64,000 bases of DNA from a virus. Positions within the stretch are counted from its first letter, which is position 1. Every line of letters starts with the position of its first letter. Below are positions 8,428 through 61,998 of the stretch, piece after piece. The notes under the pieces are model-generated. The model did no database searches. It had not been told where the DNA came from and saw nothing but the letters and a program-made list of their open reading frames with translations. The position numbers and the translations under genes are program-made. The stretch is taken from positions 64,001-128,000 of IMG/VR virus record IMGVR_UViG_3300017917_004222; one strand, 5' to 3'.

Positions 8428-10236
8428 ATGGCTGACAAGAAGAATGCCTCATGGCGCAAGTATTTCAAGGTCGCTGACACCTCAGGTGTGATGAGCCCAA
8501 TTTCGGGCAGTAACCAATATGGCCTTCCGGGCTATGGCAAAAACGACGGATCTGGCTCAACCACAGCTGATTTTACTTTCAAGAACTATGCCAGCCGCTT
8601 GCCTGAAGTGTATTCGGGCCACCCCAACCGTGTGGAGCGTTACAACCAGTACGAAAACATGGACATGGATTCGGAAATCAACGCCTGCTTGGACATCATT
8701 GCTGAATTCAGCACACAGATGAACCTGGACAACGGCACACCGTTTGAGGTCGAGTACACTGACAAGCCCACTGATCACGAAGTCAACATCATACGCAAAC
8801 AGTTGCAACAGTGGGTCAAGCTCAACCAGTTGGATCAGCGCATATTCAAACTGTTCCGCAACACCATCAAGTATGGCGATCAAGTGTTTGTTCGTGACCC
8901 CGAAACATTTGAAATGTACTGGGTGGACATGAGCAAGGTCATGCGTGTGATCGTTAACGAAAGCGAAGGCAAACGTCCCGAACAGTATGTGATTCGAGAC
9001 ATCAACCCCAATTTTCAAAGCCTCAGCATAGCGCAGAAAACCACCACGGACTACATGACCAATCCAGTTACTGGTACTATTTCGGGGTCAGCAAACTACA
9101 CCATGCCCAACGGCGGTGTTGGCGGCGGGGTAGGCAATTCACGCTTTATGACTGCCATGAACGAGACTTGCATTGACGCCAAGCATGTGGTGCACCTGAG
9201 TCTCAACGAGGGCTTGGATGTGTTTTGGCCGTTTGGTCGCAGTGTGTTGGAACAGATTTACAAGGTTTTCAAGCAGAAAGAACTGCTGGAAGACGCTATC
9301 TTGATCTATCGTGTGAGTCGTGCTCCGGAACGCAGAGTGTTCAAAATTGACGTGGGCAACATGCCTAGCCACTTGGCTATGGCGTTTGTGGAACGTGTCA
9401 AAAACGAGATGCATCAGCGTCGTATCCCCACTGTGGCCGGTGGCGGACAGAACATGATGGATGCCAGCTACAACCCGCTCAGCATCAACGAAGACTACTT
9501 CTTCCCCCAAGGTCAAGACGGCCGTGGATCTAGTGTTGATGTGCTGCCTGCTGGCGCAAACCTAGGCGAAATCGACGACCTCAAGTACTTCAACAACAAA
9601 ATGGCCCGTGGTCTGCGTGTGCCCTCCAGCTATCTGCCCACTGGTCCGGATGACTCAGATCGCAGTCTCAGCGATGGCAAAGTGGGCACAGCCCTGATTC
9701 AAGAGTATCGTTTCAACCAATACTGCGAGCGTTTGCAAGGACACATTGCACAGAAGTTGGACGACGAATTCAAGATGTTCTTGAAGTGGCGCGGTTTCAA
9801 TATTGATTCCAGCCTGTTCAACATCAAGTTTGCACCACCACAGAACTTTGCCAGCTATCGCCAGGCCGAGCTAGACACCACACGAATTCAAGCATTCAGC
9901 AGCCTTGAAGCACTGCCCTACATGAGCAAGCGTTTCTTGATGGAACGATTCCTGGGCTTGAGCGAGGACGAGATTAGAAAGAACGAAGAAATGTGGCGTG
10001 AAGAGCGAGATCAGCCCGAAGTGCAAACCACATCTGGACAAGATCTTCGCAGTATCGGTATCACCCCAGGCGGTATTGAATCTGACCTTGACATGGGTCA
10101 AGAAATGGCTGGCCTGGAGCAAGCTGGTGCCATGCCCGGTGCTGCGCCTGGCGCCATGCCCGGTGCTGCTCCTGGTGGCGCGCCTGGTGGAGTTTTGCCA
10201 GCATCGGGAACACCGCCAGCACCAGGTTCGGTATAA
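8428..10236 (+). CDS. gp20: Portal protein
   Basis: LLEDAILIYRVSRAPERRVFKIDVGNMP, EDYFFP, LRVPSSYL; first gene of the head module. Confidence 0.95.
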   Translation: MADKKNASWRKYFKVADTSGVMSPISGSNQYGLPGYGKNDGSGSTTADFTFKNYASRLPEVYSGHPNRVERYNQYENMDMDSEINACLDIIAEFSTQMNLDNGTPFEVEYTDKPTDHEVNIIRKQLQQWVKLNQLDQRIFKLFRNTIKYGDQVFVRDPETFEMYWVDMSKVMRVIVNESEGKRPEQYVIRDINPNFQSLSIAQKTTTDYMTNPVTGTISGSANYTMPNGGVGGGVGNSRFMTAMNETCIDAKHVVHLSLNEGLDVFWPFGRSVLEQIYKVFKQKELLEDAILIYRVSRAPERRVFKIDVGNMPSHLAMAFVERVKNEMHQRRIPTVAGGGQNMMDASYNPLSINEDYFFPQGQDGRGSSVDVLPAGANLGEIDDLKYFNNKMARGLRVPSSYLPTGPDDSDRSLSDGKVGTALIQEYRFNQYCERLQGHIAQKLDDEFKMFLKWRGFNIDSSLFNIKFAPPQNFASYRQAELDTTRIQAFSSLEALPYMSKRFLMERFLGLSEDEIRKNEEMWREERDQPEVQTTSGQDLRSIGITPGGIESDLDMGQEMAGLEQAGAMPGAAPGAMPGAAPGGAPGGVLPASGTPPAPGSV

Positions 10237-10574: not shown

Positions 10575-11354
10575 ATGAACAAATTTGAACAGTTGATTGA
10601 ATACGTGATCAACGATGAAGAAAGCAAAGCTCGCGAGCTGTTCCACGAAATCGTGGTTGAAAAGAGTCGTACCATCTACGAAAGTCTCATGGACGATGAA
10701 GACCTCGGCGGCGATGCTGCTGATGACTTGATTGATGAAGTTGAGTCTGAAGAAGAGTCCGACATCAACATGGAAGCCGAAGGCGACGAAGAGATCGATG
10801 ATGAAGAAATCGACATCGACATGGGCGACGACCTAGGCGATGACATGGGCGACGACCTAGGCGATGACCACCACGACGATGTGGGCGGTGACGAAGAGCT
10901 CGAAGACCGCGTGATGGACCTGGAAGACAAGCTGGACGAACTCATGGCCGAATTTGAAGAACTCATGGGCGACGAAGGTGGCGACATGGGCGACGGCGAT
11001 GACTTTGGCGATGACGAAGGCGGCGATGCCATTGAAATGGACGACACCGAAGAAATGGAGCCCATGGCTGAAGCCATCAGTCTCAAGGCCGCTCCCAAGC
11101 CAGTGACATCTGAACAAGGTGACGGAAAGGCAGGACCTGTTGCATTCAACAGCGGCGCTGCTGGTATGGCAGCCAAGCCTGTGCACCCAACTGGCACTGA
11201 AGCACAAGGCCGTGCAGCCCCCACAACCAAGGATCTGATTGGTGACTTCCAGAACAAAGCTGGCGCCAGCATGAAAGATCAAAAAGCGGCTCCCAAGCCA
11301 ACAACTGGTCAGGCCAGCGGCGTTAACACCCGCACACCTTTCCCGAAGGGTTAA
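10575..11354 (+). CDS. Highly acidic prohead core protein (gp67/gp68 position)
   Basis: Asp/Glu-rich; immediately upstream of the protease; SD AGGAG. Confidence 0.65.
   Translation: MNKFEQLIEYVINDEESKARELFHEIVVEKSRTIYESLMDDEDLGGDAADDLIDEVESEEESDINMEAEGDEEIDDEEIDIDMGDDLGDDMGDDLGDDHHDDVGGDEELEDRVMDLEDKLDELMAEFEELMGDEGGDMGDGDDFGDDEGGDAIEMDDTEEMEPMAEAISLKAAPKPVTSEQGDGKAGPVAFNSGAAGMAAKPVHPTGTEAQGRAAPTTKDLIGDFQNKAGASMKDQKAAPKPTTGQASGVNTRTPFPKG
10818..10865 (+). repeat. Exact 24-nt tandem duplication (DMGDDLGD x2)
   Basis: gacatgggcgacgacctaggcgat x2. Confidence 0.9.
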
Positions 11355-11358
11355 TTGA

Positions 11359-12000
11359 ATGTCGTCTCGTTACCTAAGAGAAGATCTTACTTTTGTCCAG
11401 GCCAACATTCAGGTTCTTGAGGAATCTGATGCGGCCACCGGCGGTAAGAATCTGTATCTCAAGGGCATTTGCATTGAAGGCGACAAGCGCAATGCAAACG
11501 AGCGAATCTATCCACGCCACGAGATCATCAAGGCAGTTGAAACCATTAACGAACAAATCCGCAATGGCAACTCTGTATTAGGTGAAGTGGACCATCCGGA
11601 TGATCTCAAAATCAACCTTGACCGAGTGTGTCACTCGGTCGAGAGTATGTGGATGGACGGACATGCCGGCTGCGGCAAACTCAAAATATTGCCCACCCCC
11701 ATGGGCAACCTTATCAAAACATTGCTACAATCTGGCGTGAAACTGGGTGTTTCCAGTCGCGGTAGTGGCAACGTGGATGATAGGACCGGACATGTAAGTG
11801 ACTTTGAAATTGTCACTATAGATGTGGTTGCTCAACCCAGCGCCCCCAACGCATACCCAACCGCGGTGTACGAAGGACTCATGAACATGCGACACGGTCA
11901 CCGTGTCCTGGATATGGCTCGTGAAGCTGGTCAAAGTGACAAAGTGCAGAGATACTTGGCCGAGGAAGTAAAACGCCTTATCCGGGATCTCAAAATCTAA
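11359..12000 (+). CDS. gp21: Prohead core protease
   Basis: NANERIYP, LGEVDHP, LGVSSRGSG, DVVAQPSAPNA. Confidence 0.95.
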   Translation: MSSRYLREDLTFVQANIQVLEESDAATGGKNLYLKGICIEGDKRNANERIYPRHEIIKAVETINEQIRNGNSVLGEVDHPDDLKINLDRVCHSVESMWMDGHAGCGKLKILPTPMGNLIKTLLQSGVKLGVSSRGSGNVDDRTGHVSDFEIVTIDVVAQPSAPNAYPTAVYEGLMNMRHGHRVLDMAREAGQSDKVQRYLAEEVKRLIRDLKI

Positions 12001-12012
12001 GGAGAATCAGGA

Positions 12013-13110
12013 ATGTTTGATGCAATCAAACCCTTGCTTGAGAGCGGACTGATCAATGAGGACATCGGAAGAGAACTCAACGAAGCTTGGGAATCAAAAC
12101 TAGGCGAAGCCCGTGAACAAGTGCGTGCCGAACTCCGCGAGGAGTTTGCACAACGCTACGATCATGACAAGAGTGTCATGGTTGAAGCCTTAGATAAAAT
12201 GGTAACTGAAGGTCTGCAGGCAGAACTGCAAGCCTTTGCTGCTGAAAAGCAAGCATTGGCCGAAGATCGCGTGAAGTTCCAAGTCAAGATGAAAGAAAGT
12301 GCCACCAAGTTCAACAACTTCTTGGTCACCAAATTGGCTGAAGAAATCAGCGAGCTGCGCAAAGACCGCAAAGTGCATGCAGAAGGACTAGCCAAGCTAG
12401 AAAACTTCATGGTGCATGCGCTGGCTCGTGAAATTCAAGAATTCGCACAAGACAAGCGTGCAGTGGTGGAAACCAAAGTCCGCCTGGTGCGCGAAGCTCG
12501 TGAAAAACTTGAAACACTCAAGGCTCGCTTTGTAAAAGAAAGTGCTGCCAAGATGAGCCGTGCAGTTAGCCTGCATCTCAAGGCTGAATTGACACAGTTG
12601 CAAGAAGACATCAAGGTTGCTCGTGAGAACAGCTTTGGACGTCGTATCTTTGAAGCTTATGCTGCTGAATTTGGCGCTACTCACCTCAATGAGAAAGCCG
12701 AAGTCAAGAAGCTCTACAACATGTTGGCCGACAAGGACCGTAAATTGTCCGAAGCCATCAAACTCAGCGAGCGTGCGAGAGCCGTGGTTGAGTCCAAAGA
12801 ACGCGAAGTACGCATGCTTAAAGAAAGCAACGAGCGTGAAGCTACCATGCGTGAACTGCTGGCCCCTCTCAACAAGGACAAGGCCGAAGTCATGCGTAAT
12901 TTGCTCGAGAGCGTTCAAACTCCACGTTTGAAGTCAGCTTTTGAAAAGTATCTACCAGCAGTGTTGGAAGATCGTTCTGCAAAAGCCCGCAAAGTGATTG
13001 CAGAATCGGTTACCGAAGTAACTGGTGATAAAACTGTTCCCACCCAGCATGAAGCAGATCGCAATGCATCCAGCAACGTGATTGACCTTAAGCGCCTGGC
13101 CGGGCTATAA
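12013..13110 (+). CDS. gp22: Prohead scaffolding protein
   Basis: Coiled-coil, many [LVI]xE sites, between protease and major capsid protein. Confidence 0.85.
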   Translation: MFDAIKPLLESGLINEDIGRELNEAWESKLGEAREQVRAELREEFAQRYDHDKSVMVEALDKMVTEGLQAELQAFAAEKQALAEDRVKFQVKMKESATKFNNFLVTKLAEEISELRKDRKVHAEGLAKLENFMVHALAREIQEFAQDKRAVVETKVRLVREAREKLETLKARFVKESAAKMSRAVSLHLKAELTQLQEDIKVARENSFGRRIFEAYAAEFGATHLNEKAEVKKLYNMLADKDRKLSEAIKLSERARAVVESKEREVRMLKESNEREATMRELLAPLNKDKAEVMRNLLESVQTPRLKSAFEKYLPAVLEDRSAKARKVIAESVTEVTGDKTVPTQHEADRNASSNVIDLKRLAGL

Positions 13111-13127: not shown

Positions 13128-14324
13128 ATGTCACAAGAACTACTCGAAAGTCGTTGGGATGAAACCAAAGAGGCCCTTCTCGAAGGCCTTAATGGTACCA
13201 AACGCAACAGCATGCGTGTTATCCTCGAGAACACACGCAAGTACCTGAAAGAAAACGCTTCTGCAGGTAGCACCACAGCTGGCAACATTGCCACCCTGAA
13301 CCGCGTGATCCTCCCAGTGATCCGACGTGTGATGCCAACCGTTATTGCTAACGAGTTGGTTGGTGTTCAGCCCATGACTGGTCCTGTTGGACAGATCCAC
13401 ACTCTGCGTGTGCGTTATGCCCAAAGCCTGACCGACACCAGCGCAGCCGCCACCAGCGTCACAGCTGGCCAGGAAGCTCTGAGCCCGTTCACCATCGCTA
13501 CTGCATACAGCACAGTGCCCAAAGACACTGCGTCTACCAACAGCTACACTGGTGGTAACACTGCTGTGATGGAAGGCAACGGCGGCAAGCAGATCTCCGT
13601 GCAGATCCTGAAGCAGGCTGTTGAAGCCAAGACCCGTAAGTTGCAAGCTCGTTGGACCTTTGAATCGGCCCAAGACGCTCAAGCCATGCACGGTATCGAC
13701 GTTGAAGCTGAAATCATGGCCGCTCTGGCTCAGGAAATCACAGCTGAAATTGACCAGGAAATCCTGTTGAGCCTGCGCTCACTGGCTGCTACTGAGTTCA
13801 CATACAACCAGGCTACCGTTAGCGGTACTGCTACTTTCGTTGGTGACGAACACGCCGCTCTGGCAGTTCTGATCAACCGCGTGGCAAACCTGATTGCTCA
13901 GCGTACACGTCGTGGTGCTGGTAACTACGCTGTGGTCAGCTCTGCTGCTCTCACAGTGCTGCAAAGCGCTACCACTTCGGCTTTTGCTCGTACCACTGAA
14001 GGTACTTTCGAAGCTCCTACCAACACCAAGTTTGTTGGTACACTGAACGGCGCAATGCGTGTGTTCGTTGACAGCTATGCCAGCGACACCACTCCTGTGC
14101 TGGTTGGTTACAAGGGCTCCAGCGAAGCTGACGCTCCTGCATTCTACTGCCCATACATCCCCTTGATGAGCAGTGGTGTTGTGTTGGATCCAACCACATT
14201 CGAACCAGTCGTGTCATTTATGACGAGATATGGGTACATCGAGTTGACAAATACTGCAAGTTCGTTCGGTAACGCGGGCGACTACGTGGGCGAAATTGCT
14301 GTTTCGAATTTGAGCTTCAGCTGA
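13128..14324 (+). CDS. gp23: Major capsid protein
   Basis: LVGVQPMTGPVG, TRKLQARWT, EITAEIDQE, FYCPYIPL, FMTRYG. Confidence 0.97.
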   Translation: MSQELLESRWDETKEALLEGLNGTKRNSMRVILENTRKYLKENASAGSTTAGNIATLNRVILPVIRRVMPTVIANELVGVQPMTGPVGQIHTLRVRYAQSLTDTSAAATSVTAGQEALSPFTIATAYSTVPKDTASTNSYTGGNTAVMEGNGGKQISVQILKQAVEAKTRKLQARWTFESAQDAQAMHGIDVEAEIMAALAQEITAEIDQEILLSLRSLAATEFTYNQATVSGTATFVGDEHAALAVLINRVANLIAQRTRRGAGNYAVVSSAALTVLQSATTSAFARTTEGTFEAPTNTKFVGTLNGAMRVFVDSYASDTTPVLVGYKGSSEADAPAFYCPYIPLMSSGVVLDPTTFEPVVSFMTRYGYIELTNTASSFGNAGDYVGEIAVSNLSFS

Positions 14325-49402: not shown

Positions 49403-50011
49403 ATGAAACCATTTGCAAAATATCTTGCCGAGAGCGAACGCACATACGATTACAGGATCAAAATCCTGGGCCGTGTCGGCGACGATCTTGTGCGACAACT
49501 CAAACAAAAACTGGCACAATTTGATCCAGTCTCGGTGGGGGAGTTGAAATCAACTCCCATACAAAAAGTACCTACCGATTTCCCGGGCAGTCAAAACGAA
49601 GCAGTGAGCATGTTTGACGTCAAGTTCAAGTATCCTGCAATTGACGCACAGATCAAACAGTTGTGGCAGTTGCTGGGCCAGAACCCCAACCACATCATCA
49701 TGGGCACGGTCAAGCATGCTGAAGGTCTTGCAAAAGAATATCAACGCATCGAAGATGAAAACAAAGACCTGATCAACGATACTGATTACCCCGAACCCGA
49801 TAGCGAGCAAAAATCACTCAGCCGTGACTATGCTGCAGAACCGCATGACCATGTGGTACTAAAAAATGCTTATCGAAGTGATTTCACCATTGCCGGCGGC
49901 CGCACTCCTGCTGCCAAAACCACCAATGACATTGCGCAAGGTACCAAGAGTCCAATGACCAATGTCAAGCGTCCAGCCAAGCCAGCTACTGGCCGTAACC
50001 CAAGAGGATAA
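49403..50011 (+). CDS. Putative internal head protein
   Basis: N-terminal MKPFAKYLAE resembles the T4 capsid-targeting sequence. Confidence 0.55.
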   Translation: MKPFAKYLAESERTYDYRIKILGRVGDDLVRQLKQKLAQFDPVSVGELKSTPIQKVPTDFPGSQNEAVSMFDVKFKYPAIDAQIKQLWQLLGQNPNHIIMGTVKHAEGLAKEYQRIEDENKDLINDTDYPEPDSEQKSLSRDYAAEPHDHVVLKNAYRSDFTIAGGRTPAAKTTNDIAQGTKSPMTNVKRPAKPATGRNPRG

Positions 50012-50016
50012 ACCAA

Positions 50017-52521
50017 ATGTCATTTTTTTACGATCTCAACAAAAAACTACAGCAAGTGCTGGAATCCCCCAAGAGCGAGCACAAACAACTGAACGAGGGC
50101 TGGAAGGGCGGCGCAGCTGGTGCTGGCGTGGGTGCAGTGGCTGGCGGGCCAGTTGGTGCTGCCATTGGCTCGGTGCTGGGCGACAAAATTGGCGATGAGC
50201 TGGGCGAAACTGGCTACAGCGCCCGGGCAGCCAGTGCTGGACGAGACATTGGCAAACCCGGCAAGAACTTTGCCAAAATTGCCAAAAGTGCTGGCGAGCG
50301 CTACGGCTCTAAAGAACGCGGCGAAGCTGTGGCAGGCGCTGTGCTCAAGAAGCTGCGAGCCAAAAACGAAGGTGTTGATTCTGACGCTGGCGATGACAAC
50401 CGAGTGTCCACAGTGGTCCGACTGTTGAAGCGATTGCTGACTTCGGAAGCACTACGTGACGCCTACGACATTGGCGAAGATGATGTGTTCCAAATTGAAG
50501 AGCTGGCAGCTGCATTGGAAAACAATGACATGGAAGCAGCACAAGACGCATGGAGCGTGTTTGATGTGAACGAGCTGGACAATGCATTGGACAGTTATGT
50601 GGCCGACAATGGGCTCGAAACCGGTTACTTGTTTGACCTACTGGGCCACAATGTGAACGAAGGCTCCAAAGTTCCAACAGACTGGATGGGAGTCCCTACT
50701 AAGCTGGGCAAAAATGACAAGAAGCCAATCCAGTTCCCAGCAGGGTATGATGAATATATCAAGCAGGGTGCCAAGCATGGATTCCAAGATGATCCCAACA
50801 ATCCTCTGCGTAAACGAGTCAAAAAAGCAGGCGTAGCAGAAGGCCGCCATACTCAATCCAACGCACTGGAACTGAACCCTGACCTCCGGGCCCAGGCCAA
50901 CAAGCCCACAGTGGCCGGCCGCATTGGCAGCGCAGCCAAGCGGGTGGCAAACGCCATCACTGGTGGCAGCGATGAAGACGCCAAGAATCGTTTGCTGAAC
51001 CGCATGGGCGGCCGCCGCACTCCCCTGGCACGTGATGACATGTCCGAAGCCACTAAAGAAATCCCGGGCGGTCGTCGTCACACATCTGAGCCAGGTGGCT
51101 ACGGTCGCAAGGACGACGACGAAGCCCCCAAGGCAAAAACTCAGCGTGGTCGTGGTCGTCCCAAGAAGGGCGGCGACAGCGAAACAGGTGAAGTCAAGAA
51201 GTACGACTGGAGCGCATTTGGTGCAACTGGCAAGGATGTCAAGTTGCCCAAGCACTCGGGTACCGTTACCAAGCACAAAATGAGCGACGAAGAACCCAAA
51301 AAGAAAGTCAAAGAAGCCACCAAGGAAATCCCAGGTGGACGTCGTCACACTGCTGATGCAGGCGGCTATGGTCGCCGAGACGACGAAGATGACAAGGGCA
51401 AGCGAGTCGCAGCTCAAGTCAAACGTGGCCGTGGTCGTCCCAAGAAGGGCGGCGATAGCGAAACAGGCGAAGTCAAGAAATATGACTGGAGCGCATTTGG
51501 CGCCACAGGCAAAGAAGTCAAACTGCCCAAGCACAAGGGCAATGTTACTCGGCACAAGATGGACGAGGCTGTGAGTGAAGATGATCTTGCAGTTCTTGAA
51601 CGACTCATGGACCAGGCGTTTGCCGAAGGCAACACTGCCCTAGGCAATGATATTCAGGGTGTGATCGAGCGCATCCAGGGCGATCAAGACGAAGGCCAAT
51701 ACGATGACGAGCCGGTGAACGAAAAAGCTGTGAGTAAAAAGCAGCAACGGTTCATGGGCATGGTGCATGCTGCACAAAAAGGTGAAAAGCCTGCGTCAAA
51801 AGAAGTGGCCAAAGTGGCCAAGGAAATGCCCAAGAAGGAAGCTGAAAAGTTTGCCAAGACCAAACAAAAAGGCCTGCCCGAGAAAAAACAAGCCACTGAC
51901 GAAACATCAGACAGCAAGCCAGCCAAAGGCGGCATGACTTTTGGCAAGGGCATTTATGACAGCATGAATCGTGAGCTAGAGAGCATGATTGCTGAAAGCA
52001 TGAGTGTTAACTTGAGCATGAATGATGACGGCCATGGCGGTCCACGCCGCAGCCTCACAGTGACTGCCACTGACGACGATGCAACCAAGCTGGCTGAACT
52101 ACTGAAAATGGCTGGCATTGGCGACGAATCATCTGCTGAGTCAAGTGACTGTGGCTGCGACGAGCTTGAGGAAAACCAAGCCGATTGGCCAACTGATGCT
52201 GAAACCAGCAATGATCCGTTCCAGTACTCGGGAGGACTCAATGGTCCCAAGAGCACAGGACAGACCACTGGTGCTCCGTTCAACCGTCAACCGCAGCGCC
52301 AGGGCGCCATGGTAGACGAAGAGGACGAATTGGCTCGCATGATGGAAATGGCTGGTGTCAAGAAAGGCAGCAAGCCCGACTATGTTGACCTTGACAAAGA
52401 CGGCAACAAAACCGAGCCCATGAAGCAAGCGGCCAAAGACGCCAAGGAAGACAGTGCAGATCAAGTGGACGAAGGCATCCTCGGCGCCACTCGCAATCTG
52501 TGGAAAACCTATCAAGGCTGA
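50017..52521 (+). CDS. Modular putative internal head polyprotein with two AT-hook modules
   Basis: Many x-x-E|G/A junctions; duplicated module containing RGRGRPKK. Confidence 0.65.
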   Translation: MSFFYDLNKKLQQVLESPKSEHKQLNEGWKGGAAGAGVGAVAGGPVGAAIGSVLGDKIGDELGETGYSARAASAGRDIGKPGKNFAKIAKSAGERYGSKERGEAVAGAVLKKLRAKNEGVDSDAGDDNRVSTVVRLLKRLLTSEALRDAYDIGEDDVFQIEELAAALENNDMEAAQDAWSVFDVNELDNALDSYVADNGLETGYLFDLLGHNVNEGSKVPTDWMGVPTKLGKNDKKPIQFPAGYDEYIKQGAKHGFQDDPNNPLRKRVKKAGVAEGRHTQSNALELNPDLRAQANKPTVAGRIGSAAKRVANAITGGSDEDAKNRLLNRMGGRRTPLARDDMSEATKEIPGGRRHTSEPGGYGRKDDDEAPKAKTQRGRGRPKKGGDSETGEVKKYDWSAFGATGKDVKLPKHSGTVTKHKMSDEEPKKKVKEATKEIPGGRRHTADAGGYGRRDDEDDKGKRVAAQVKRGRGRPKKGGDSETGEVKKYDWSAFGATGKEVKLPKHKGNVTRHKMDEAVSEDDLAVLERLMDQAFAEGNTALGNDIQGVIERIQGDQDEGQYDDEPVNEKAVSKKQQRFMGMVHAAQKGEKPASKEVAKVAKEMPKKEAEKFAKTKQKGLPEKKQATDETSDSKPAKGGMTFGKGIYDSMNRELESMIAESMSVNLSMNDDGHGGPRRSLTVTATDDDATKLAELLKMAGIGDESSAESSDCGCDELEENQADWPTDAETSNDPFQYSGGLNGPKSTGQTTGAPFNRQPQRQGAMVDEEDELARMMEMAGVKKGSKPDYVDLDKDGNKTEPMKQAAKDAKEDSADQVDEGILGATRNLWKTYQG

Positions 52522-52523
52522 TC

Positions 52524-54167
52524 ATGAAATCATTTCGCGAACATCTAAGAGAGACACAAGAAACATTTGATCGCCCGGCAACGGGCGATGACTTCGCCAT
52601 CAACATTCGTGAAGAATGCTTGATCGAAACCTATGTGGTCGACGAGACAGCCGACGGCATTGTGCTGCATGCTGACGAGCGCATGATGCGATTGCTAGAA
52701 TCTTACGGTTACGTGCAAGAAGGTGGCGTCAAGGAAATGTTGATTGGTGCTGCCGAGCGCATGACACTTGATGAGTTCATTGATGCCTACGGCAGCCAGT
52801 TTGGACCCGACGAAGCAGAAGAATTCTGGCACACTGTGAACGACGAAAATGAAGTTGAACAGTCTGGTCCGGGACACTGGATGCACGAGGAAACTTTTGT
52901 TGCGGCAAACAGTGATGGTATATCACACCAGGATGCTGGCGAGTACGATTACGAAGGCGACATGGCCAAGGATGACTTGAGCACAATCATTCGTGCTGCT
53001 CGTCGACTCACAGGCATGCTGGACGACAACGAAAACATGCCCGAGTGGGTGCAGAGCAAAATCAACAAAGCCGCTGACTATGTGGACACAGCCGCCGATT
53101 ACATCGAGTCCAACAAAGAACGCGGTGTCATGGAAGGCGGTGATCCTGCAACTTACCGGGCAAAAGCCCAAGAGGCACACGCCAAATATCTCAAGTACGA
53201 AGACTTGGTTGATCAGGAGTTGAGAAAACTAGGTGAGCGTCTGCCTCGGTCCTGGGATGCCAACGCCTTTCAAAACAAGTTGTCCAGCGACCCCAAGTAT
53301 GCCCAGGCCTTGAAGTATTACAAACTCAGCGAAAAATTTGGCGGCCTAGCCGTTCGTTATAAAGAACTGTCCAAGAAGCGGGGCATGGCAGAAGGTCAGT
53401 TGGCCAACCCAGACAACCAAGACTCGCCTGTGGCCCGAGCAATCACACACCGCATCCTTATGCAACACACTGGCCTGTTGGCCAAATACGGCCCCGAGCG
53501 GGTCATGGACGCTGTGGATGAAGTGGCTGATTTTGTCGGCGATGTAGAAGAAATTGGGTCAAGCGATGTGTCGGGCTGGGTGCGTCATGTGGAACAGATG
53601 CTGACCAACATGCCCGACAGCTTGGATGAACAATATGGCGACGAGTTTGACAACGAAGAGGACGAAGAAGACGAAGCAAACGGATTCTACGTGGTAATTG
53701 CCAGCGAAACCAATGGCGTGTTTATTGGCCAAGTGATCAAGGACGGCAGCAAGTGGCGCGAAATGGGCGGGGTTGGTAAACAGCCCTACAGCTGGGGCGG
53801 AAACTACATGGGCTATCTTTCCCCGGATGACGTGATCAGCTGGATACGTAAAGACTACCGCAATGCTGAGGTGGACGGCCCGTTCTCAAGCGAGGACGAA
53901 GCACAACAAGCTGCTGACAATTTGAGCGAAGCCAAATACCAAGGACGTGAAGTTCCACTAGGCAAACCCATGCAGGGCGATGTCAAGAAGAGCAAAGTCT
54001 ACGTCCGCGGACCCAAGGGCAACGTGGTCAAGGTCAACTTTGGCGACCCCAACATGCGCATCAAGAAAAGCAACCCCGAGCGTCGCAAGAACTTCCGTGC
54101 GCGCCACAACTGCGACAATCCAGGTCCACGTTGGAAAGCACGCTACTGGAGTTGCCGCGCCTGGTAA
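52524..54167 (+). CDS. Modular putative internal head polyprotein
   Basis: MKSFREHLRE start; GVME|G, GMAE|G, LDE|Q and LSE|A junctions; C-terminal FRARHNC..ARYWSC module. Confidence 0.65.
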   Translation: MKSFREHLRETQETFDRPATGDDFAINIREECLIETYVVDETADGIVLHADERMMRLLESYGYVQEGGVKEMLIGAAERMTLDEFIDAYGSQFGPDEAEEFWHTVNDENEVEQSGPGHWMHEETFVAANSDGISHQDAGEYDYEGDMAKDDLSTIIRAARRLTGMLDDNENMPEWVQSKINKAADYVDTAADYIESNKERGVMEGGDPATYRAKAQEAHAKYLKYEDLVDQELRKLGERLPRSWDANAFQNKLSSDPKYAQALKYYKLSEKFGGLAVRYKELSKKRGMAEGQLANPDNQDSPVARAITHRILMQHTGLLAKYGPERVMDAVDEVADFVGDVEEIGSSDVSGWVRHVEQMLTNMPDSLDEQYGDEFDNEEDEEDEANGFYVVIASETNGVFIGQVIKDGSKWREMGGVGKQPYSWGGNYMGYLSPDDVISWIRKDYRNAEVDGPFSSEDEAQQAADNLSEAKYQGREVPLGKPMQGDVKKSKVYVRGPKGNVVKVNFGDPNMRIKKSNPERRKNFRARHNCDNPGPRWKARYWSCRAW

Positions 54168-54177
54168 GGAGAAACAC

Positions 54178-54348
54178 ATGGAACATTACAAACCCTACAA
54201 CCCTGCACCACTCACAACACCTCCGGTGCAAAACCCGCACTCGCCTGCTGGCAGCGGATATCGTCAACAGCCAGTGAACATCCCGGGTGTGCTGGACCAA
54301 ACACGAAACATGTTTCAACCATACCAACCCAAGGATCCTAACAAATGA
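54178..54348 (+). CDS. Small Pro-rich protein
   Basis: SD AAGGAG; ATGA coupling to the next gene. Confidence 0.6.
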   Translation: MEHYKPYNPAPLTTPPVQNPHSPAGSGYRQQPVNIPGVLDQTRNMFQPYQPKDPNK

Positions 54349-54638: not shown

Positions 54639-55016
54639 ATGGTGCGAGCAAGAGAATTTTTAGGCGAAGAAAAGGTTGGAAAAATTTCCAAACGACTGCA
54701 ATCGGCCACCCGCGGTCTCAACAAGTTTAGAGACCGCTCATTCTCTGACCGCGTGTACGAACTGAACCGTGTGATGATGGCAGCCGCATGCAACGACGGT
54801 GATGATTTTGCCCATCCAGTTGACGCTGAATCCTGGGCTGGACGCCACGACATTGCGGCACCTTATACCGAGGTTGAGCAACGCATGCTGGAAAAAGCAT
54901 ACAAGGCTGTTGGATCTTTGTATCAAGACATCAACCACGGCAACATGGACAGTGAAGAGCACCCAGCTGTGAACAAAACAAGTCCTATAAATAGTTTCAA
55001 AGGATACCCAAGATGA
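54639..55016 (+). CDS. Hypothetical protein
   Basis: SD AAGGAG; MVRAREFLGE start. Confidence 0.65.
   Translation: MVRAREFLGEEKVGKISKRLQSATRGLNKFRDRSFSDRVYELNRVMMAAACNDGDDFAHPVDAESWAGRHDIAAPYTEVEQRMLEKAYKAVGSLYQDINHGNMDSEEHPAVNKTSPINSFKGYPR
54986..54993 (+). promoter_or_regulatory. T4-type late promoter TATAAATA
   Basis: Exact consensus upstream of 55013. Confidence 0.7.
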
Positions 55017-56889: not shown

Positions 56890-56933
56890 ATTGCTCACTG
56901 GGCAGCAGCCCTAGCACACGTTTGGAGATTCTC

Positions 56934-58520
56934 ATGATCGCTAACAAAGCCAGTTCACTAGAAACGGTATTGGTCAAAACCCCACACCGTCGTGAAACCT
57001 ATACAGACCAAGAATTGATGGAGTTTGCCCGATGTGCAGACCCAGTCAACGGCCCCATGTATTTCATGGACCACTACTTTCACATTCAGCATCCCACACG
57101 TGGCAAGATGCTGTATCAGCCGTTTCCGTACCAAAAAAAGCTGATTGAAACCTATCACCGTTATCGCTACAGCATCAGTCTCATGCCGCGACAGACTGGT
57201 AAATCAACATCAGCTGCAGGCTATCTGTTGTGGTACGCCATGTTTGTGCCCGACAGCACCATTCTCATTGCGGCACACAAGTACACAGGTTCACAAGAAA
57301 TCATGCAGCGCATTCGATTTGCCTACGAGCTGTGCCCCAACCACATACGTGCAGGTTGTACCAGTTACAACAAAGGCAGCTTGGAATTTGAGAACGGCAG
57401 TCGTATTGTGTCGGCCACCACAACAGAAAACACTGGTCGTGGTATGAGTATTTCGCTGTTGTACGCTGACGAATTTGCGTTTGTGCGACCCACCATTGCG
57501 CAAGAGTTCTGGACTTCTATTTCGCCCACGCTGGCCACAGGTGGTAAGGCCATCATCACATCAACTCCCAACAGTGACGAAGACAAGTTTGCTGAGATTT
57601 GGAAAAGCGCCAACAAGTGTCTTGACGAAAACGGCAACACCACTGAACTGGGCATCAACGGCTTCAAGGCTTATCGTGCTTACTGGAATGAACATCCGGA
57701 TCGTGATGAAAAGTGGGCTGCAGAGCAGCGGGCTCAGCTGGGCGAAGAACGTTTTCGTCGTGAGATGGATTGCGAATTTGTTATCAATGATGAGACCTTG
57801 ATTTCGCCTATCAAACTGTTGGATCTTGAGGGCGTGGAACCTCGATACAAAACCGGACAGGTGCGCTGGTACAAACCATTGTCCAAGGACCGGATGTACA
57901 TTGTGGCCCTGGATCCCAGCCTGGGCACTGGCGGCGACCCAGCAGCCATACAAGTGTTTGAAGCTGAAACAACCGAACAGGTGGCCGAGTGGAAACACAA
58001 TCGAACTGACATTCCCACGCAGATTCGCATCATGGCCGACATAGTGAAAGAAATCCACGACGTGGTCAAGGACAGCAAAAAAATCTACTACAGTGTGGAA
58101 AACAATACCCTGGGCGAAGCTGCACTGATATCTATTGCTGAGTACGGGGAAGAAAGCATTCCGGGATACTTTCTAAGTGACAACTCGGTCACAGGCTCGG
58201 GAACTCAACGATTCCGCAAAGGCTTTAACACCACCCACAAGGCCAAGGTCACTGCCTGTAACAAGTTCAAGATTCTTGTGGAATCGGGGCGTATGAAACT
58301 GCACAGCAAGCCCTTGATCAGCGAACTCAAAAACTTCGTGGCCAAGGGCAACAGTTTTGCTGCCAAACCTGGCGAGACTGACGACCTTGTGATGGCCAGC
58401 CTCTTGATTATTCGCATGTTGATGTTGTTGCAAACTTACCATGCCGAATTGGACCAGCACATCAAAGATCACAATGATGTCATTGTGGAACCTTTTCCCT
58501 TTATATCTGTCATGCGCTAA
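56934..58520 (+). CDS. gp17: Terminase large subunit
   Basis: PRQTGKST Walker A, LLYADEFAF Walker B, IITSTPN, ALDPS, DDLVM. Confidence 0.95.
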   Translation: MIANKASSLETVLVKTPHRRETYTDQELMEFARCADPVNGPMYFMDHYFHIQHPTRGKMLYQPFPYQKKLIETYHRYRYSISLMPRQTGKSTSAAGYLLWYAMFVPDSTILIAAHKYTGSQEIMQRIRFAYELCPNHIRAGCTSYNKGSLEFENGSRIVSATTTENTGRGMSISLLYADEFAFVRPTIAQEFWTSISPTLATGGKAIITSTPNSDEDKFAEIWKSANKCLDENGNTTELGINGFKAYRAYWNEHPDRDEKWAAEQRAQLGEERFRREMDCEFVINDETLISPIKLLDLEGVEPRYKTGQVRWYKPLSKDRMYIVALDPSLGTGGDPAAIQVFEAETTEQVAEWKHNRTDIPTQIRIMADIVKEIHDVVKDSKKIYYSVENNTLGEAALISIAEYGEESIPGYFLSDNSVTGSGTQRFRKGFNTTHKAKVTACNKFKILVESGRMKLHSKPLISELKNFVAKGNSFAAKPGETDDLVMASLLIIRMLMLLQTYHAELDQHIKDHNDVIVEPFPFISVMR

Positions 58521-58530
58521 ATAACTGACT

Positions 58531-61500
58531 ATGGCAACAAGCAACAATATTGGCAAAGATCTCGTGGATTTGCTGGCCACCCACAACTTTGATGTTGAAA
58601 CATCCAGCGCCAAAAACCCATCGGCCACCCCCGACGAAGCCACAGTGTTCAAGTTTGATTACGTGAGTCAACACAATCGCAACTACGGCACTGCAGTTAT
58701 CGTGATTGGTGACGACAATGACCTCATTTTGTTCTACGGTGACAATCTGGGACGGGGCATGGAACCCGAGGACAAGGACGAATGGTTTGCGTTCATGAAA
58801 GAGCTCAAGGATTTTTCAGTACGCCACAACTTCAAAACATTCAGCCCCAAAAACCTCAATCAACTCAAGCACACCATGCAAGGCATGGCAGCCATCAAAG
58901 AAGGCTTGTTTGAAGGCTACTATGGATCTCGACGGGTCAGCTACATGGGTCCGGCTACCGAAGCACGACTGGTGATCAATCACAATCGGCTGATTGGCGA
59001 AAATGACAAGCGATTCCGTTATATCGAAAGCCTGTTTATCGAGACTGTGGAGGGCGAACGATTCCGCTTGCCGTTCAAGCACATGGCCGGAGCTCGAGCC
59101 ATGCTGGAGCATGTGCGCCAAGGTGGTCGTCCGTATGACATTCGGGGCCAGCACATTGCTGATGTTGTGAACGAGATGTCGGTGTTGTCACGTTTTCGAC
59201 GTGCGCAACAAGGACGAGTGTTTGAGGGAGTGACACGGGAGTTGGTAGAGCAGGCCAACCAGTATTACCAGTCGTTGCACACCAATCTCAAGCACATGTC
59301 CAGCAATCGCGGGTACCGTTCGTATTTTGAATCCTGGACTCCGGCCGACATTGGGCCAGAAGAATCCCTAGTGGAAGATCTGCGAACCATGTTTGTGGAA
59401 CAAACCATAGACAGCAGAATTGAACAAGCATTGCCTACCCTGGCCAAGCTAAAAGGAAAAACAATGAAAGAAGCTGATATTTTTGAATCATGGGCCAACC
59501 GGTTGACCGAAGGCACTTGGGCACTGCCCGACAATCCCGAAGCACAAGAAAAGCTCAATCAACTCATGAGCAGTGAGCTGATTGTGGGGCCAGATGCAAC
59601 CAATGCCACAGAACTGTTGTACGATGTTGTGGGCGACGATGAGCTGTATGACATCCTTGACGATTTGGCCGCAAGGAACCCTAGAGCCAACATCTGGGAC
59701 GATTCTGATGTGATTCAGCGCATGCAAGAACTAGGCATTCAGCTGCCCAACGGCGATGAAGAACCCAACACCAACATGGATATGCCAGCGCCTGGCGACG
59801 CTGCCGAGGTCAGAGAAGGCGACAACCTGGCGACATTTGTCGAAGGCAGCTGCAATCACACCCGGGAAGGCGAATACTGCCCCGAGCATGGACTCATGGA
59901 ATGCGGCATGTACGAAAGCATGGGCGGCACAGTGGCTGGCGCTGTTGCTACTGGAGTGCCGCATGCGTCAGAAGGTGTGGAGGAAGGCTCCGCAAAGTAT
60001 ATCAAGCGCAGCGTGGCAGGTTGGGGCTGGTACGACAAAGACAAGCCTAAAGATGTGGTGAATAAAGTCAAGGGTCAAGACACAGATGTGCTAAAAAGGC
60101 TGCATGAACCTGACACCAAAAAAGGCAAGGGTTCTCCTGCTGAACTACAACAAAAAGCCATCAGTCGTGAGTTGAAGAGGCGTGGTAAGCAAGGTGTAGG
60201 GGAAGCTGAATATGATTCTAGAAAACCCTATGGGGTTCGTTATAGAGTATTTGCCGGGCGTGACGGCAGATTAACTACTAAAGAATTTTGGACTACCTCG
60301 TCGGAAAAATTAAAAAAGGCCGTTGCCAAAATTGAAGCCTTGGGCAACTTCTACGAAATTGACGGATATAGCTATCCCAAAGAACAGCCGGGCGTGTCAG
60401 AAGAATATACGCAAGTTCACGAACTAAGTAAAGACACTCTGCAATCATATCGTGACCGGACAAAAGAAAAGCGAGCTGCATACAACGCTGCAATCCGGCA
60501 CGCCGGCGATCCGCCACTGGGCATGACATCTACCCACTCTAGTGATGAAGTAGACCGGTGGATTAAAAAGTATGATAAAATGGGCGGCGGTATGAAAAAG
60601 GCTGCCAACAGAATCAAAAATTTAGATAAGCAAGGCGTGTCGGAAACCAATGTTGCAAAATACCGAGACCTGGGCGCTACTGCAGACACTACCCACTTTG
60701 TCAAGAACGTCACCACAGGCAAGATTGTGAGTCCACATCGCAGCCGTCAAGATGCCGAAGACGCCCTGGTTGCGTTGCAGCGTCGCCCTGACGGCAACGA
60801 ATACAAGATTGTTCGTGCCAGAAAAGATGTGACCGAAGGTGATGATCGTGGCGATTATCACTCTACTGCCCGCGCTGCCGAACAAGCCACAAGGCAAGCC
60901 AAGGACCCTGCAGGCCACCGAAAGGCAGCAGGTTTGCATGACCGTGCAGCAACTTATGCGCTATCGGCCGGTCACGACAGCAGTGTTGTCCACGATCACC
61001 AAATGGCAGCACGGGAACACACCCGAGCAGCCCGAGGATTGACTAAAAGCTCGTTGGAAGAAGCCGGCGGAGCAAAACAATACAATGAATTCAAGCGTGA
61101 ATGGCGTGCAAAACACGGTGCTGATGCCAAAGTTCCCGGCTATGATAGCCGAGAATATACATCCTACTGCTATCGTCAACTTGATAAAAAGCATGGTGTG
61201 TCAGAAACCCGAGCTGATCCCACCAGCACCTGGGTGGTGTATGACGGCAAAAAAGTTCAGCGTTTCAAAACCCACGCTGGTGCCAAGGCCTATGCTGAAA
61301 AGCACGGCGGCAAAGTTGCAAGCTCGGCGCACTATGCCGATCGCATCCAAAAGTCCGAAGTAAAGGAAGGCTTGGACATCGAAGCCGCTCGTGAACGACT
61401 TGCATCACTGCAGAGGGACCTGAAGGCAGTGACCGGCAATTATCCCGGCGATGATCGTAATCGCATGATCCTGCGCAGGCAAATATTTGATCTGAAGGCA

Positions 61501-61998
61501 CAAATCAAATCAGCAGGCAGCAAGAAATCTGAGGTGAAGGAAGGCCAACTCAACGAATATCTAGTGAACGAAGGAGAACCGTTTTCTGAGGTATTGAATC
61601 TGAATGTGTTTATGGACACCAGCCCAGATGGTCAAGTAGGGATGGATCATGATCCTCAATGGCAACAACTAATGGCAAAATATCAACCCATTGCCAAACA
61701 GTTAGAGCAACAAATACAAGCACTTGACGAGTACGAACTCTCGCCCAAAGAAGTAGACGCAATTCACAATGTTTGGTATGATGGATCAGACGCCTATGAT
61801 GACATGGAAGTTGATGTTCTAGCCAGGCTCTACGACCAGCAAATCAAGTTGGTCAAACGAATGATAACCGTTAGATTGAGAAAGCAAGGTGTGTCTGAAG
61901 ACTCAACTGACCCCATGGACCATCGTGGTGCTGTGACCGACAGCTTCCGTGAAAGTCTGGATCGCATAAAAACTCTGGCACAGATTCGCAAGAGCTAA
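58531..61998 (+). CDS. Large protein: ordered N-terminal region plus C-terminal array of small modules (putative head polyprotein)
   Basis: Late promoter; repeated KQGVSE/KSEVKE-type linkers every ~50-110 aa. Confidence 0.75.
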   Translation: MATSNNIGKDLVDLLATHNFDVETSSAKNPSATPDEATVFKFDYVSQHNRNYGTAVIVIGDDNDLILFYGDNLGRGMEPEDKDEWFAFMKELKDFSVRHNFKTFSPKNLNQLKHTMQGMAAIKEGLFEGYYGSRRVSYMGPATEARLVINHNRLIGENDKRFRYIESLFIETVEGERFRLPFKHMAGARAMLEHVRQGGRPYDIRGQHIADVVNEMSVLSRFRRAQQGRVFEGVTRELVEQANQYYQSLHTNLKHMSSNRGYRSYFESWTPADIGPEESLVEDLRTMFVEQTIDSRIEQALPTLAKLKGKTMKEADIFESWANRLTEGTWALPDNPEAQEKLNQLMSSELIVGPDATNATELLYDVVGDDELYDILDDLAARNPRANIWDDSDVIQRMQELGIQLPNGDEEPNTNMDMPAPGDAAEVREGDNLATFVEGSCNHTREGEYCPEHGLMECGMYESMGGTVAGAVATGVPHASEGVEEGSAKYIKRSVAGWGWYDKDKPKDVVNKVKGQDTDVLKRLHEPDTKKGKGSPAELQQKAISRELKRRGKQGVGEAEYDSRKPYGVRYRVFAGRDGRLTTKEFWTTSSEKLKKAVAKIEALGNFYEIDGYSYPKEQPGVSEEYTQVHELSKDTLQSYRDRTKEKRAAYNAAIRHAGDPPLGMTSTHSSDEVDRWIKKYDKMGGGMKKAANRIKNLDKQGVSETNVAKYRDLGATADTTHFVKNVTTGKIVSPHRSRQDAEDALVALQRRPDGNEYKIVRARKDVTEGDDRGDYHSTARAAEQATRQAKDPAGHRKAAGLHDRAATYALSAGHDSSVVHDHQMAAREHTRAARGLTKSSLEEAGGAKQYNEFKREWRAKHGADAKVPGYDSREYTSYCYRQLDKKHGVSETRADPTSTWVVYDGKKVQRFKTHAGAKAYAEKHGGKVASSAHYADRIQKSEVKEGLDIEAARERLASLQRDLKAVTGNYPGDDRNRMILRRQIFDLKAQIKSAGSKKSEVKEGQLNEYLVNEGEPFSEVLNLNVFMDTSPDGQVGMDHDPQWQQLMAKYQPIAKQLEQQIQALDEYELSPKEVDAIHNVWYDGSDAYDDMEVDVLARLYDQQIKLVKRMITVRLRKQGVSEDSTDPMDHRGAVTDSFRESLDRIKTLAQIRKS

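Follow-up and report, generated by a model that had tools for sequence, protein, structure and literature searches.

A window of 64,000 nucleotides (i.e., bases 64001 to 128000 of the 147.8-kb IMG/VR virus record IMGVR_UViG_3300017917_004222) carries two neighboring plus-strand genes, here called gene 1 (P0001; positions 50017-52521 of the window; 834 amino acids, aa) and gene 2 (52524-54167; 547 aa). CheckV estimated the record to be 43% complete, so its source, an uncultured T4-like giant phage, probably has a full genome above 300 kb in size. Gene 1 belongs to the core genes of its clade and is a candidate for a modular head-cargo polyprotein; gene 2 is an accessory gene of the clade and a candidate for a capsid-targeted modular protein. 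A first-pass annotation of the window had described both as polyprotein-like, and this description holds: each gene is a chain of separable modules, and a short motif, [LIVM]-x-E, sits at homology breakpoints and at predicted domain edges.

Gene 1 starts with a leader of 27 aa (50017-50097) that ends in QLNE and is predicted by AlphaFold to form a helix at residues 2 to 16. Its L-N-E is kept in all 23 of the aligned relatives, and the module that follows it varies. Behind the leader lie, on the same strand, a glycine-zipper-like module (aa 28-64; 50098-50208) ending in LGE, with sub-threshold Pfam glycine-zipper matches (E of 0.007 to 0.05); a basic helical-hairpin module, module F (aa 65-118; 50209-50370), ending in KNE, with helices predicted at 83-117 at a predicted local distance difference test score (pLDDT) of 88 to 94; and an acidic helical domain (aa 119-215; 50371-50661; net charge -19) ending in NVNE, with helices at 124-209 (pLDDT of 88 to 95) and a drop in confidence directly after them. 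Two basic segments, disordered for the most part (aa 216-275 and 276-344; 50662-51048), end in GVAE and DMSE, respectively, and are followed by tandemly duplicated AT-hook units (aa 345-433 and 434-517; 51049-51567) that contain GRGRPKK and each begin immediately after x-x-E. Next come an acidic helical hairpin (aa 518-569; 51568-51723), which ends in PVNE and has helices at 521-554 (pLDDT of 89 to 92) between flanks with a pLDDT of <50, and a DUF3008-like module (aa 570-622; 51724-51882). The latter scores 17.9 bits against the Pfam family (PF11450; cutoff, 24 bits), matches five PHROG families at E values of 1e-12 to 1e-18, and shows 64 to 66% identity with cyanophage genes by tblastn. The conserved C-terminal half (aa 623-834; 51883-52518) comprises an alpha/beta unit (646-698), a Cys cluster, an NxPDWPT segment, a segment with MAGVKK and KPDYVDLDKDGNK, and a 15-aa terminal peptide after QVDE. 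Full-length relatives of gene 1 measure 614 to 1,150 aa, and their synteny is conserved between the homologs of the genes at 49403 and 54345. Both gene families have modules that are glycine/alanine-rich, glycine-zipper-like peptides (positions 7271-7966 of locus L016; 50098-50208 of the window), and these modules may be membrane-active pieces.

The start of gene 2 was placed at the ATG at 52524 rather than at a GTG at 52500, because most relatives begin at that Met. The first 10 residues, MKSFREHLRE↓T (52524-52553; arrows mark predicted or known cuts), resemble the capsid-targeting sequence (CTS) of T4. A conserved N-domain follows (aa 11-66; 52554-52721), a predicted beta/alpha unit that ends in YVQE (pLDDT of 81 to 92, and 61 at residues 61-70). 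The variable modules (aa 67-204; 52722-53135), ending in GVME, consist of a helical unit, a disordered acidic stretch, and a helical hairpin with the sequence LPEWVQ. They are succeeded by a basic helical module (aa 205-290; 53136-53393) that ends in GMAE, with helices at 208-291 and a pLDDT of <50 at 290-298, and then by a helical module (aa 291-369) ending in SLDE and an acidic low-confidence segment (aa 370-469) ending in NLSE (53394-53930 together; pLDDT of 95 to 98 at residues 302-362 and <50 from residue 374). The protein closes with a basic module (aa 470-547; 53931-54164; net charge +16) that starts with AKYQGR. All these parts lie on the plus strand. Members of the gene 2 family range from 145 to 583 aa and are present in some syntenic relatives and absent from others. 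A 122-aa Arg/Thr/Ser-rich open reading frame (ORF) in another frame (53980-54348; plus strand) overlaps the end of gene 2; it looks like a shadow ORF and not a gene.

The T4 internal proteins IPII and IPIII start with MKTYQEFIAE↓A, and the 19-residue leader of IPI ends in ITE↓A (NC_000866). In the T4 leader, targeting depends on residues 4 and 7 and processing on residues 8 and 10; the prohead protease gp21 cuts after L/I-X-E, and Asp at leader position 10 blocks the cut (PMC9026906). Eighteen distinct N termini of gene 2 relatives follow the pattern MK[ST][LF]..Y[LI].E↓[SA] (e.g., MKTLKEYIAE↓S), so that Leu or Ile at position 8 and Glu at position 10 are kept in all 18. The bare pattern M-x6-[LIVM]-x-E is expected at some two to three N termini by chance among 148 proteins and was not used alone; the leader call rests on the fuller likeness to the T4 leader together with the conservation across the family. 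The presumed processing enzyme is encoded in the same window. A gp21-type prohead protease gene (11359-12000; plus strand; PF03420, 80.8 bits) has a product that aligns with the T4 gp21 structure (5JBL) and keeps the His (in GEVDHP) and the Ser (in SSRG). The junction motif of genes 1 and 2 fits the cleavage rule of T4 gp21 (PMC9026906), and a gp21 homolog with its catalytic His and Ser accompanies it.

The first-pass annotation had listed 11 motifs in gene 1 and 5 in gene 2, all of which are present where it had read them (e.g., KKAGVAE at 50821-50841 and the RGVME and KRGMAE sites, whose Glu codons end at 53135 and 53393, respectively). These 16 sites are a selection from 41 [LIVMF]-x-E occurrences, and the unselected counts were therefore tested, using 5,000 composition-preserving shuffles per protein. 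The motif [LIVM]-x-E was found 22 times in gene 1, against 10.9 expected (z of 3.8; P < 0.0002), and 18 times in gene 2, against 10.4 expected (z of 2.8; P = 0.007), i.e., about twice the shuffled frequency in both, so that the Glu content of the proteins does not account for it. A third modular gene downstream of the terminase (58531-61998; plus strand) has 31 copies against 17.6 expected (z of 3.7), and the gp22-like scaffold gene located between the protease and the major capsid protein genes (12013-13110; plus strand), which served as an internal positive control, has 27 against 12.3 expected (z of 5.2). The motif occurs at its expected frequency in the sheath, large terminase, major capsid, and portal proteins. 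The same statistic, calibrated on T4, singles out gp22 (z of 5.1), gp21 (z of 3 to 4), and gp68 (z of 2.4) and gives no excess for gp17, gp18, and gp24. The control motifs [LIVM]-x-D and E-x-[LIVM] show no excess in the three modular genes; Asp is as common as Glu, yet its control is flat. An 852-aa ORF upstream of the portal gene (5765-8323; plus strand) has a motif excess too (z of 3.1 for [LIVM]-x-E) but was set aside as probably periodic or coiled-coil sequence because the reversed motif, E-x-[LIVM], is equally high (z of 4.0).

Such a short motif might be a by-product of Glu-rich linkers in ordinary multidomain proteins unrelated to the head; Pfam and fold searches yield no function, and the packaging of the products of genes 1 and 2 is something we infer. 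We consider this explanation very improbable, given the flat Asp control, the match of the gene 2 leader to the T4 CTS, the position of both genes within a conserved block of virion genes, and a natural control at a Met-Ala start, which is described below.

Some details of the first-pass annotation are to be modified. The KNE↓G site at Glu118 of gene 1 is present as it was read but is noncanonical, with Lys at position P3; relatives have a canonical SVxE↓ or GVEE↓ 3 to 4 residues past this Glu, a site that this phage has lost. The described alternation of basic and acidic blocks is real in that the net charge swings strongly (+8, -19, +5, +4, +8, +8, -13, and so on in gene 1; -10, -23, +6, -10, -16, and +16 in gene 2), but it is not strict.

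The structural models place several of the motifs at the edges of folded units. The gene 2 model (overall pLDDT of 70.8) dips in confidence at residues 61-70, around residue 205, at 290-298, and from 374, and its unit edges adjoin Glu66, Glu204, Glu290, and Glu369; the last unit begins at residue 470, after Glu469. In the gene 1 model (overall pLDDT of 57.6), folded units are predicted at 83-117, 124-209, 521-554, 574-615, and 646-698, with edges meeting Glu118, Glu215, Glu517, and Glu569. Copies of the motif also lie within helices or strands (Glu35, Glu84, Glu270, Glu333, and the LPE at 174 in gene 2; Glu660, in MIAE, and Glu694 in gene 1), and cutting of such copies inside predicted folded units is unlikely. 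Predicted cuts with good support number about six for gene 2 and nine or ten for gene 1.

Comparison with relatives shows how the modules are exchanged. We compared 156 distinct proteins of the two gene families, collected from hundreds in IMG/VR. The gene order around them is fixed, running from the tube gene through 48077, head closure, 48885, 49403, gene 1, an optional gene 2, 54345, and 54639 to the terminase and the third gene, with further genes between 54639 and the terminase; gene 1 is always present in syntenic relatives and gene 2 only in some. Across these relatives, modules have been gained, lost, and moved between genes 1 and 2. The smallest member of the gene 2 family consists of the N-domain and the C-terminal module, fused exactly at the YVQE↓ and NLSE↓ positions, and the LPEWVQ hairpin of gene 2 is found within gene 1 relatives of other phages and in cyanophage S-H9-1. 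Twelve alignments stop at the YVQE that ends the gene 2 N-domain, and five end at GMAE. Among 934 clusters of homology breakpoints, the bond after [LIVM]-x-E is struck 2.7 times as often as expected at random (2.2 times within two residues), compared with 0.3 to 1.3 times for Asp, Lys, and reversed control motifs.

A Glu precedes the C-terminal module of gene 2 in 65 of 65 distinct upstream contexts ([LIVMF]xE in 58 of them, with Leu, Val, Met, or Ile at P3), and [I/L/V]xE precedes the DUF3008-like module in 48 of 48 contexts (Ile, Leu, and Val in 16 each). Behind the LPEWVQ module, every one of the 14 complete distinct contexts has [LIVM]xE. For module F, Glu precedes in 7 of 7 contexts and [LIVMF]xE in 6 of these, and all four distinct upstream contexts of the AT-hook units in the family end in [MV]xE. 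For individual gene 1 sites, 11 of the 39 alignments that span GVAE↓G preserve it, and E719 is kept in 38 of 63, E777 in 56 of 63, and E819 in 37 of 41. An invariant Glu with a P3 residue drifting only among hydrophobic residues fits selection on a cleavage motif and not an inherited linker.

A natural control for the position of the predicted cut is provided by viruses in which the C-terminal module is a free gene. In roseophage CRP-901, the pelagiphage podovirus HTVC111P, and a Nitrosopumilaceae spindle-shaped virus, none of which has a gp21-type protease, this gene starts with M-A-x-Y-x-G. In T4-like phages, the module is always preceded by sequence ending in x-x-E↓A; leaders stand before it in a 134-aa protein of HTVC008M (PLEE↓AEFQG) and in 88-aa genes with a 10-residue leader. 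Removal of the initiator Met in the free form and the predicted cut in the fused form would therefore produce the same N-terminal Ala, and this correspondence of sequences supports the predicted cut position.

These observations also bear on a more modest reading, in which the proteins are packaged into the head and lose only the N-terminal leader, the chain staying intact and the junction motifs being relics of fused leader-bearing genes or only partly cut. The stand-alone 88-aa forms have the 10-residue leader directly before the C-terminal module, so that a fusion would leave the end of a leader at the junction; moreover, T4 gp21 ignores many buried L/I-x-E sites, and at Glu118 of gene 1 the canonical site has been lost and the junction kept. 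Relics should decay, however, and the Glu is instead found in 65/65 and 48/48 contexts with P3 confined to Leu, Ile, Val, and Met; the remainder of a leader (MK..) is never seen at the junctions, and the excess of the motif is on a par with that in the multiply cut scaffold. We thus judge removal of the leader alone to be unlikely.

Cultured phages provide further links. Protein QPB08180 of cyanophage S-H9-1 (L168:547-1086; 180 aa) begins with the leader MKTFKQLRE↓, behind which LQE↓ and MKE↓ mark off three modules; the last module shows 60% identity with residues 145-204 of gene 2. In cyanophage S-SCSM1, mass spectrometry detected 45 virion proteins, among which the NMNAT encoded by ORF91 is named (PMC9602691), and the GenBank record labels NMNAT, ORF92, and ORF93 as virion proteins. 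ORF93 is a stand-alone DUF3008 protein of 70 aa, and the N terminus of ORF92 matches residues 781-809 of gene 1 with 66% identity. The NMNAT (ORF91; L172:2820-4049) starts with MKSFLQFLKE↓A, a T4-type capsid-targeting leader, which would explain its entry into the particle.

The window also carries a T4-type head module, which includes the portal gene (8428-10236). An acidic 259-aa protein is encoded between portal and protease (10575-11354; plus strand), in the interval that in T4 is the place of gp67 and gp68; it has an excess of [LIVM]-x-D (z of 3.7) and E-x-[LIVM] (z of 3.1) and not of [LIVM]-x-E. The scaffold itself begins with MFDAIKPLLE↓S (12013-12042), in which Leu8 and Glu10 have the spacing seen in capsid-targeting leaders. 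The Gp23-family major capsid protein gene (13128-14324; plus strand; E of 7e-98) has YLKE↓N about 25 residues ahead of a conserved VIRRV stretch. This is likely its maturation site, because it is placed like FLTE↓A, the known cut of the T4 capsid protein, about 35 residues ahead of MVRRA.

That the protease gene has those of a scaffold and an acidic core protein as neighbors is relevant to another reading, namely, that genes 1 and 2 encode auxiliary scaffold or core proteins that are broken down into small peptides and for the most part expelled on maturation, with no role after cutting. Their gp22-like motif density, the long acidic and disordered stretches, and the status of gene 1 as a clade core gene with conserved ends would all suit such a role. 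The genome, however, already has its own gp22-like scaffold and acidic core protein, and gene 2 is dispensable in many relatives. Several of the folded modules, moreover, are independent genes in unrelated viruses without this protease and virion proteins in a cyanophage, and a scaffold role alone is quite improbable on these grounds.

Genes 1 and 2 are located between the tail-tube genes and the large terminase gene (56922-58520), whose product shows 53% identity with the terminase of the Pseudomonas jumbo phage PA5oct. In PA5oct, the positional counterparts of the genes at 49403 and 55399 (gp282 and gp281, assigned by conserved gene order) adjoin each other, and both were detected in virions by mass spectrometry, which indicates that genes 1 and 2 are an insertion within a block of virion genes. 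Two neighbors have CTS-like starts of their own: the gene at 49403-50011 (plus strand) begins with MKPFAKYLAE↓S, and that at 54639-55016 (plus strand), whose synteny is conserved, begins with MVRAREFLGE↓E. PA5oct gp282, matched to the 49403 gene by position without pairwise comparison, is of similar length and has an MKSFRDY start; its first residues (L163:9808-10410), MKSFRDYYDA, thus contain the first half of a leader without an L-x-E processing site.

With the third modular gene, three such genes flank the terminase, as the first-pass annotation had it. The grammar that the three were said to share is the generic [LIVM]-x-E; the more specific linker G-[VM]-x-E is common to them only in part, with seven copies in the third gene (P < 5e-5), three in gene 2 (P = 0.01), and two in gene 1 (P = 0.13, not significant). 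The third gene uses modules of its own: a cross-search against the gene 1 and gene 2 families gave one weak match with 23% identity, so the three genes share a grammar and not modules. A total of about 25 peptides over the three genes is a plausible projection.

Searches for functions provided few leads. Apart from the DUF3008-like and weak glycine-zipper matches, no module received a function from Pfam, NCBIfam, or PHROG, and none of these gave a match to the IPI, IPII, IPIII, or Alt families. Neither protein has an enzyme or peptidase domain according to Pfam (at E values up to 1), NCBIfam, and Foldseek against the Protein Data Bank (PDB), and the gene 2 model has no Foldseek match in the PDB with an E of <0.5. 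An Atlas search gave only unnamed viral clusters and one lead for the C-terminal module of gene 2, DUF5754, which is found on 25% of one cluster. No near-identical DNA was found in the phage collection. The AT-hook repeats, the glycine-zipper-like peptide, and DUF3008 are the only functional leads.

Taken together, we propose that the products of genes 1 and 2 are probably precursors of capsid-internal cargo in a giant T4-superfamily phage, which the head protease cuts into separate mini-proteins. The computed basis of this proposal is the protease, the similarity of the leader, an excess of the motif, junctions that coincide with it, and the natural control. Each precursor would consist of an N-terminal loading signal (i.e., the T4-type 10-residue CTS in gene 2 and the conserved 27-residue leader in gene 1) and a chain of autonomous modules of about 40 to 140 aa each, and would enter the prohead core. 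The activated gp21-type protease (11359-12000) would then cut after Glu at exposed [L/I/V/M]-x-E sites, taking off the leader and separating most modules. We infer loading, cutting at each junction, ejection, and the roles of the modules. The products, which would include basic AT-hook units, the DUF3008-like unit, a virus-wide basic 78-aa unit, the glycine-zipper peptide, and acidic spacer pieces, would remain in the DNA-filled head and probably pass into the host along with the DNA, like the internal proteins of T4. If each junction is a cut site, modules could be added, lost, or moved between the genes without a loading signal of their own.

Several points weigh against this proposal. The motif is low in information, and about half of its copies fall within predicted helices or strands. 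As many as 52% of the gene 1 residues have a pLDDT of <50, so that some of the "domain edges" are partly mere disorder, and the gene 1 junction at Glu118 has no canonical site. The breakpoint statistics derive from related, nonindependent sequences, for which only the comparison motifs control for kinship. The gene 1 leader differs from the T4 CTS. Finally, the stand-alone cyanophage DUF3008 protein has no leader and is nevertheless in virions, so a leader is not the sole route into the particle.

The closest known system is that of the T4 internal proteins, of which genes 1 and 2 would be a multimodule, cassette-swapping version. IPI, IPII, IPIII, and Alt likewise combine a 10-residue leader, hydrophobic at position 8 and with Glu at position 10, with a gp21-type protease in the genome; in both systems, the mature parts are basic, and the gene set is hypervariable within a conserved frame. 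In T4, anything fused behind the leader is packaged (PMC9026906, PMC3012670). The T4 genes differ in having one mature module each and one N-terminal cut (Alt is also cut at the C terminus), whereas 6 to 12 unrelated modules with a cut motif per joint are found here, and the mature parts have no sequence similarity to the mature T4 internal proteins; the leader of gene 1 is different and longer. The T4 proteins gp22, gp67, and gp68 share with genes 1 and 2 the many L/I-x-E sites per chain, the same statistical excess, and acidic segments. They are, however, assembly proteins, coiled-coil or acidic, whose genes adjoin that of the protease, and this genome has its own (12013-13110 and 10575-11354). 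Genes 1 and 2, unlike a gp22-type scaffold gene, do not lie between the protease and the major capsid protein genes and encode autonomous folded modules found as separate genes elsewhere.

Two other systems invite comparison. Polyvalent proteins (Iyer et al. 2017, PMC5512222) also carry several unrelated domains per polypeptide, are thought to travel with the DNA and to be freed by proteolysis, and have been compared to RNA virus polyproteins. Their domains are large and enzymatic, and a built-in metallopeptidase is proposed to release them (PMC5512222), whereas the units found here are mini-proteins without a recognizable enzyme domain that a trans-acting prohead protease would cut. The ejection and inner-body proteins of the phiKZ/SPN3US type resemble our proposal in being head-internal and in having several sites at which the prohead protease cuts after Glu (PMC10052503). 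They belong to another lineage, however, with an A-x-E motif and with cuts that chiefly remove long propeptides, and no cassette-like module exchange at cut sites has been described for them. Our literature searches, whose coverage was incomplete, found no paper on natural multimodule CTS polyproteins.

A wider proposal, which we offer tentatively and hold to be about as open to doubt as to belief, with doubt slightly ahead, is that a combinatorial cargo system operates in T4-superfamily phages of marine and fresh waters. The cut motif would act as a universal joint, such that any small protein, even one that is a free gene product in other viruses, could be spliced behind a loading signal, packed, freed with its native N terminus, and delivered with the DNA, with cassettes being shuffled between genes and genomes. 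Such a system, of which our searches found no published description, would be the natural counterpart of the engineered T4 CTS-fusion delivery. It can be tested on cultured cyanophages with small versions of the architecture, such as S-H9-1. The modules are candidates for early host-takeover or DNA-protecting factors, among them the AT-hook units, the glycine-zipper peptide, and the basic 78-aa unit, which is common to podoviruses and archaeal viruses. With motif and leader combined into a simple rule, virion cargo in metagenomic phages could be predicted from sequence, and the system would explain how small "hypothetical" phage proteins and enzymes such as the cyanophage NMNAT enter the virion. 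If the cuts are real, the injected proteins that T4-type phages can carry are far more numerous, and far more changeable, than the number of their genes suggests.

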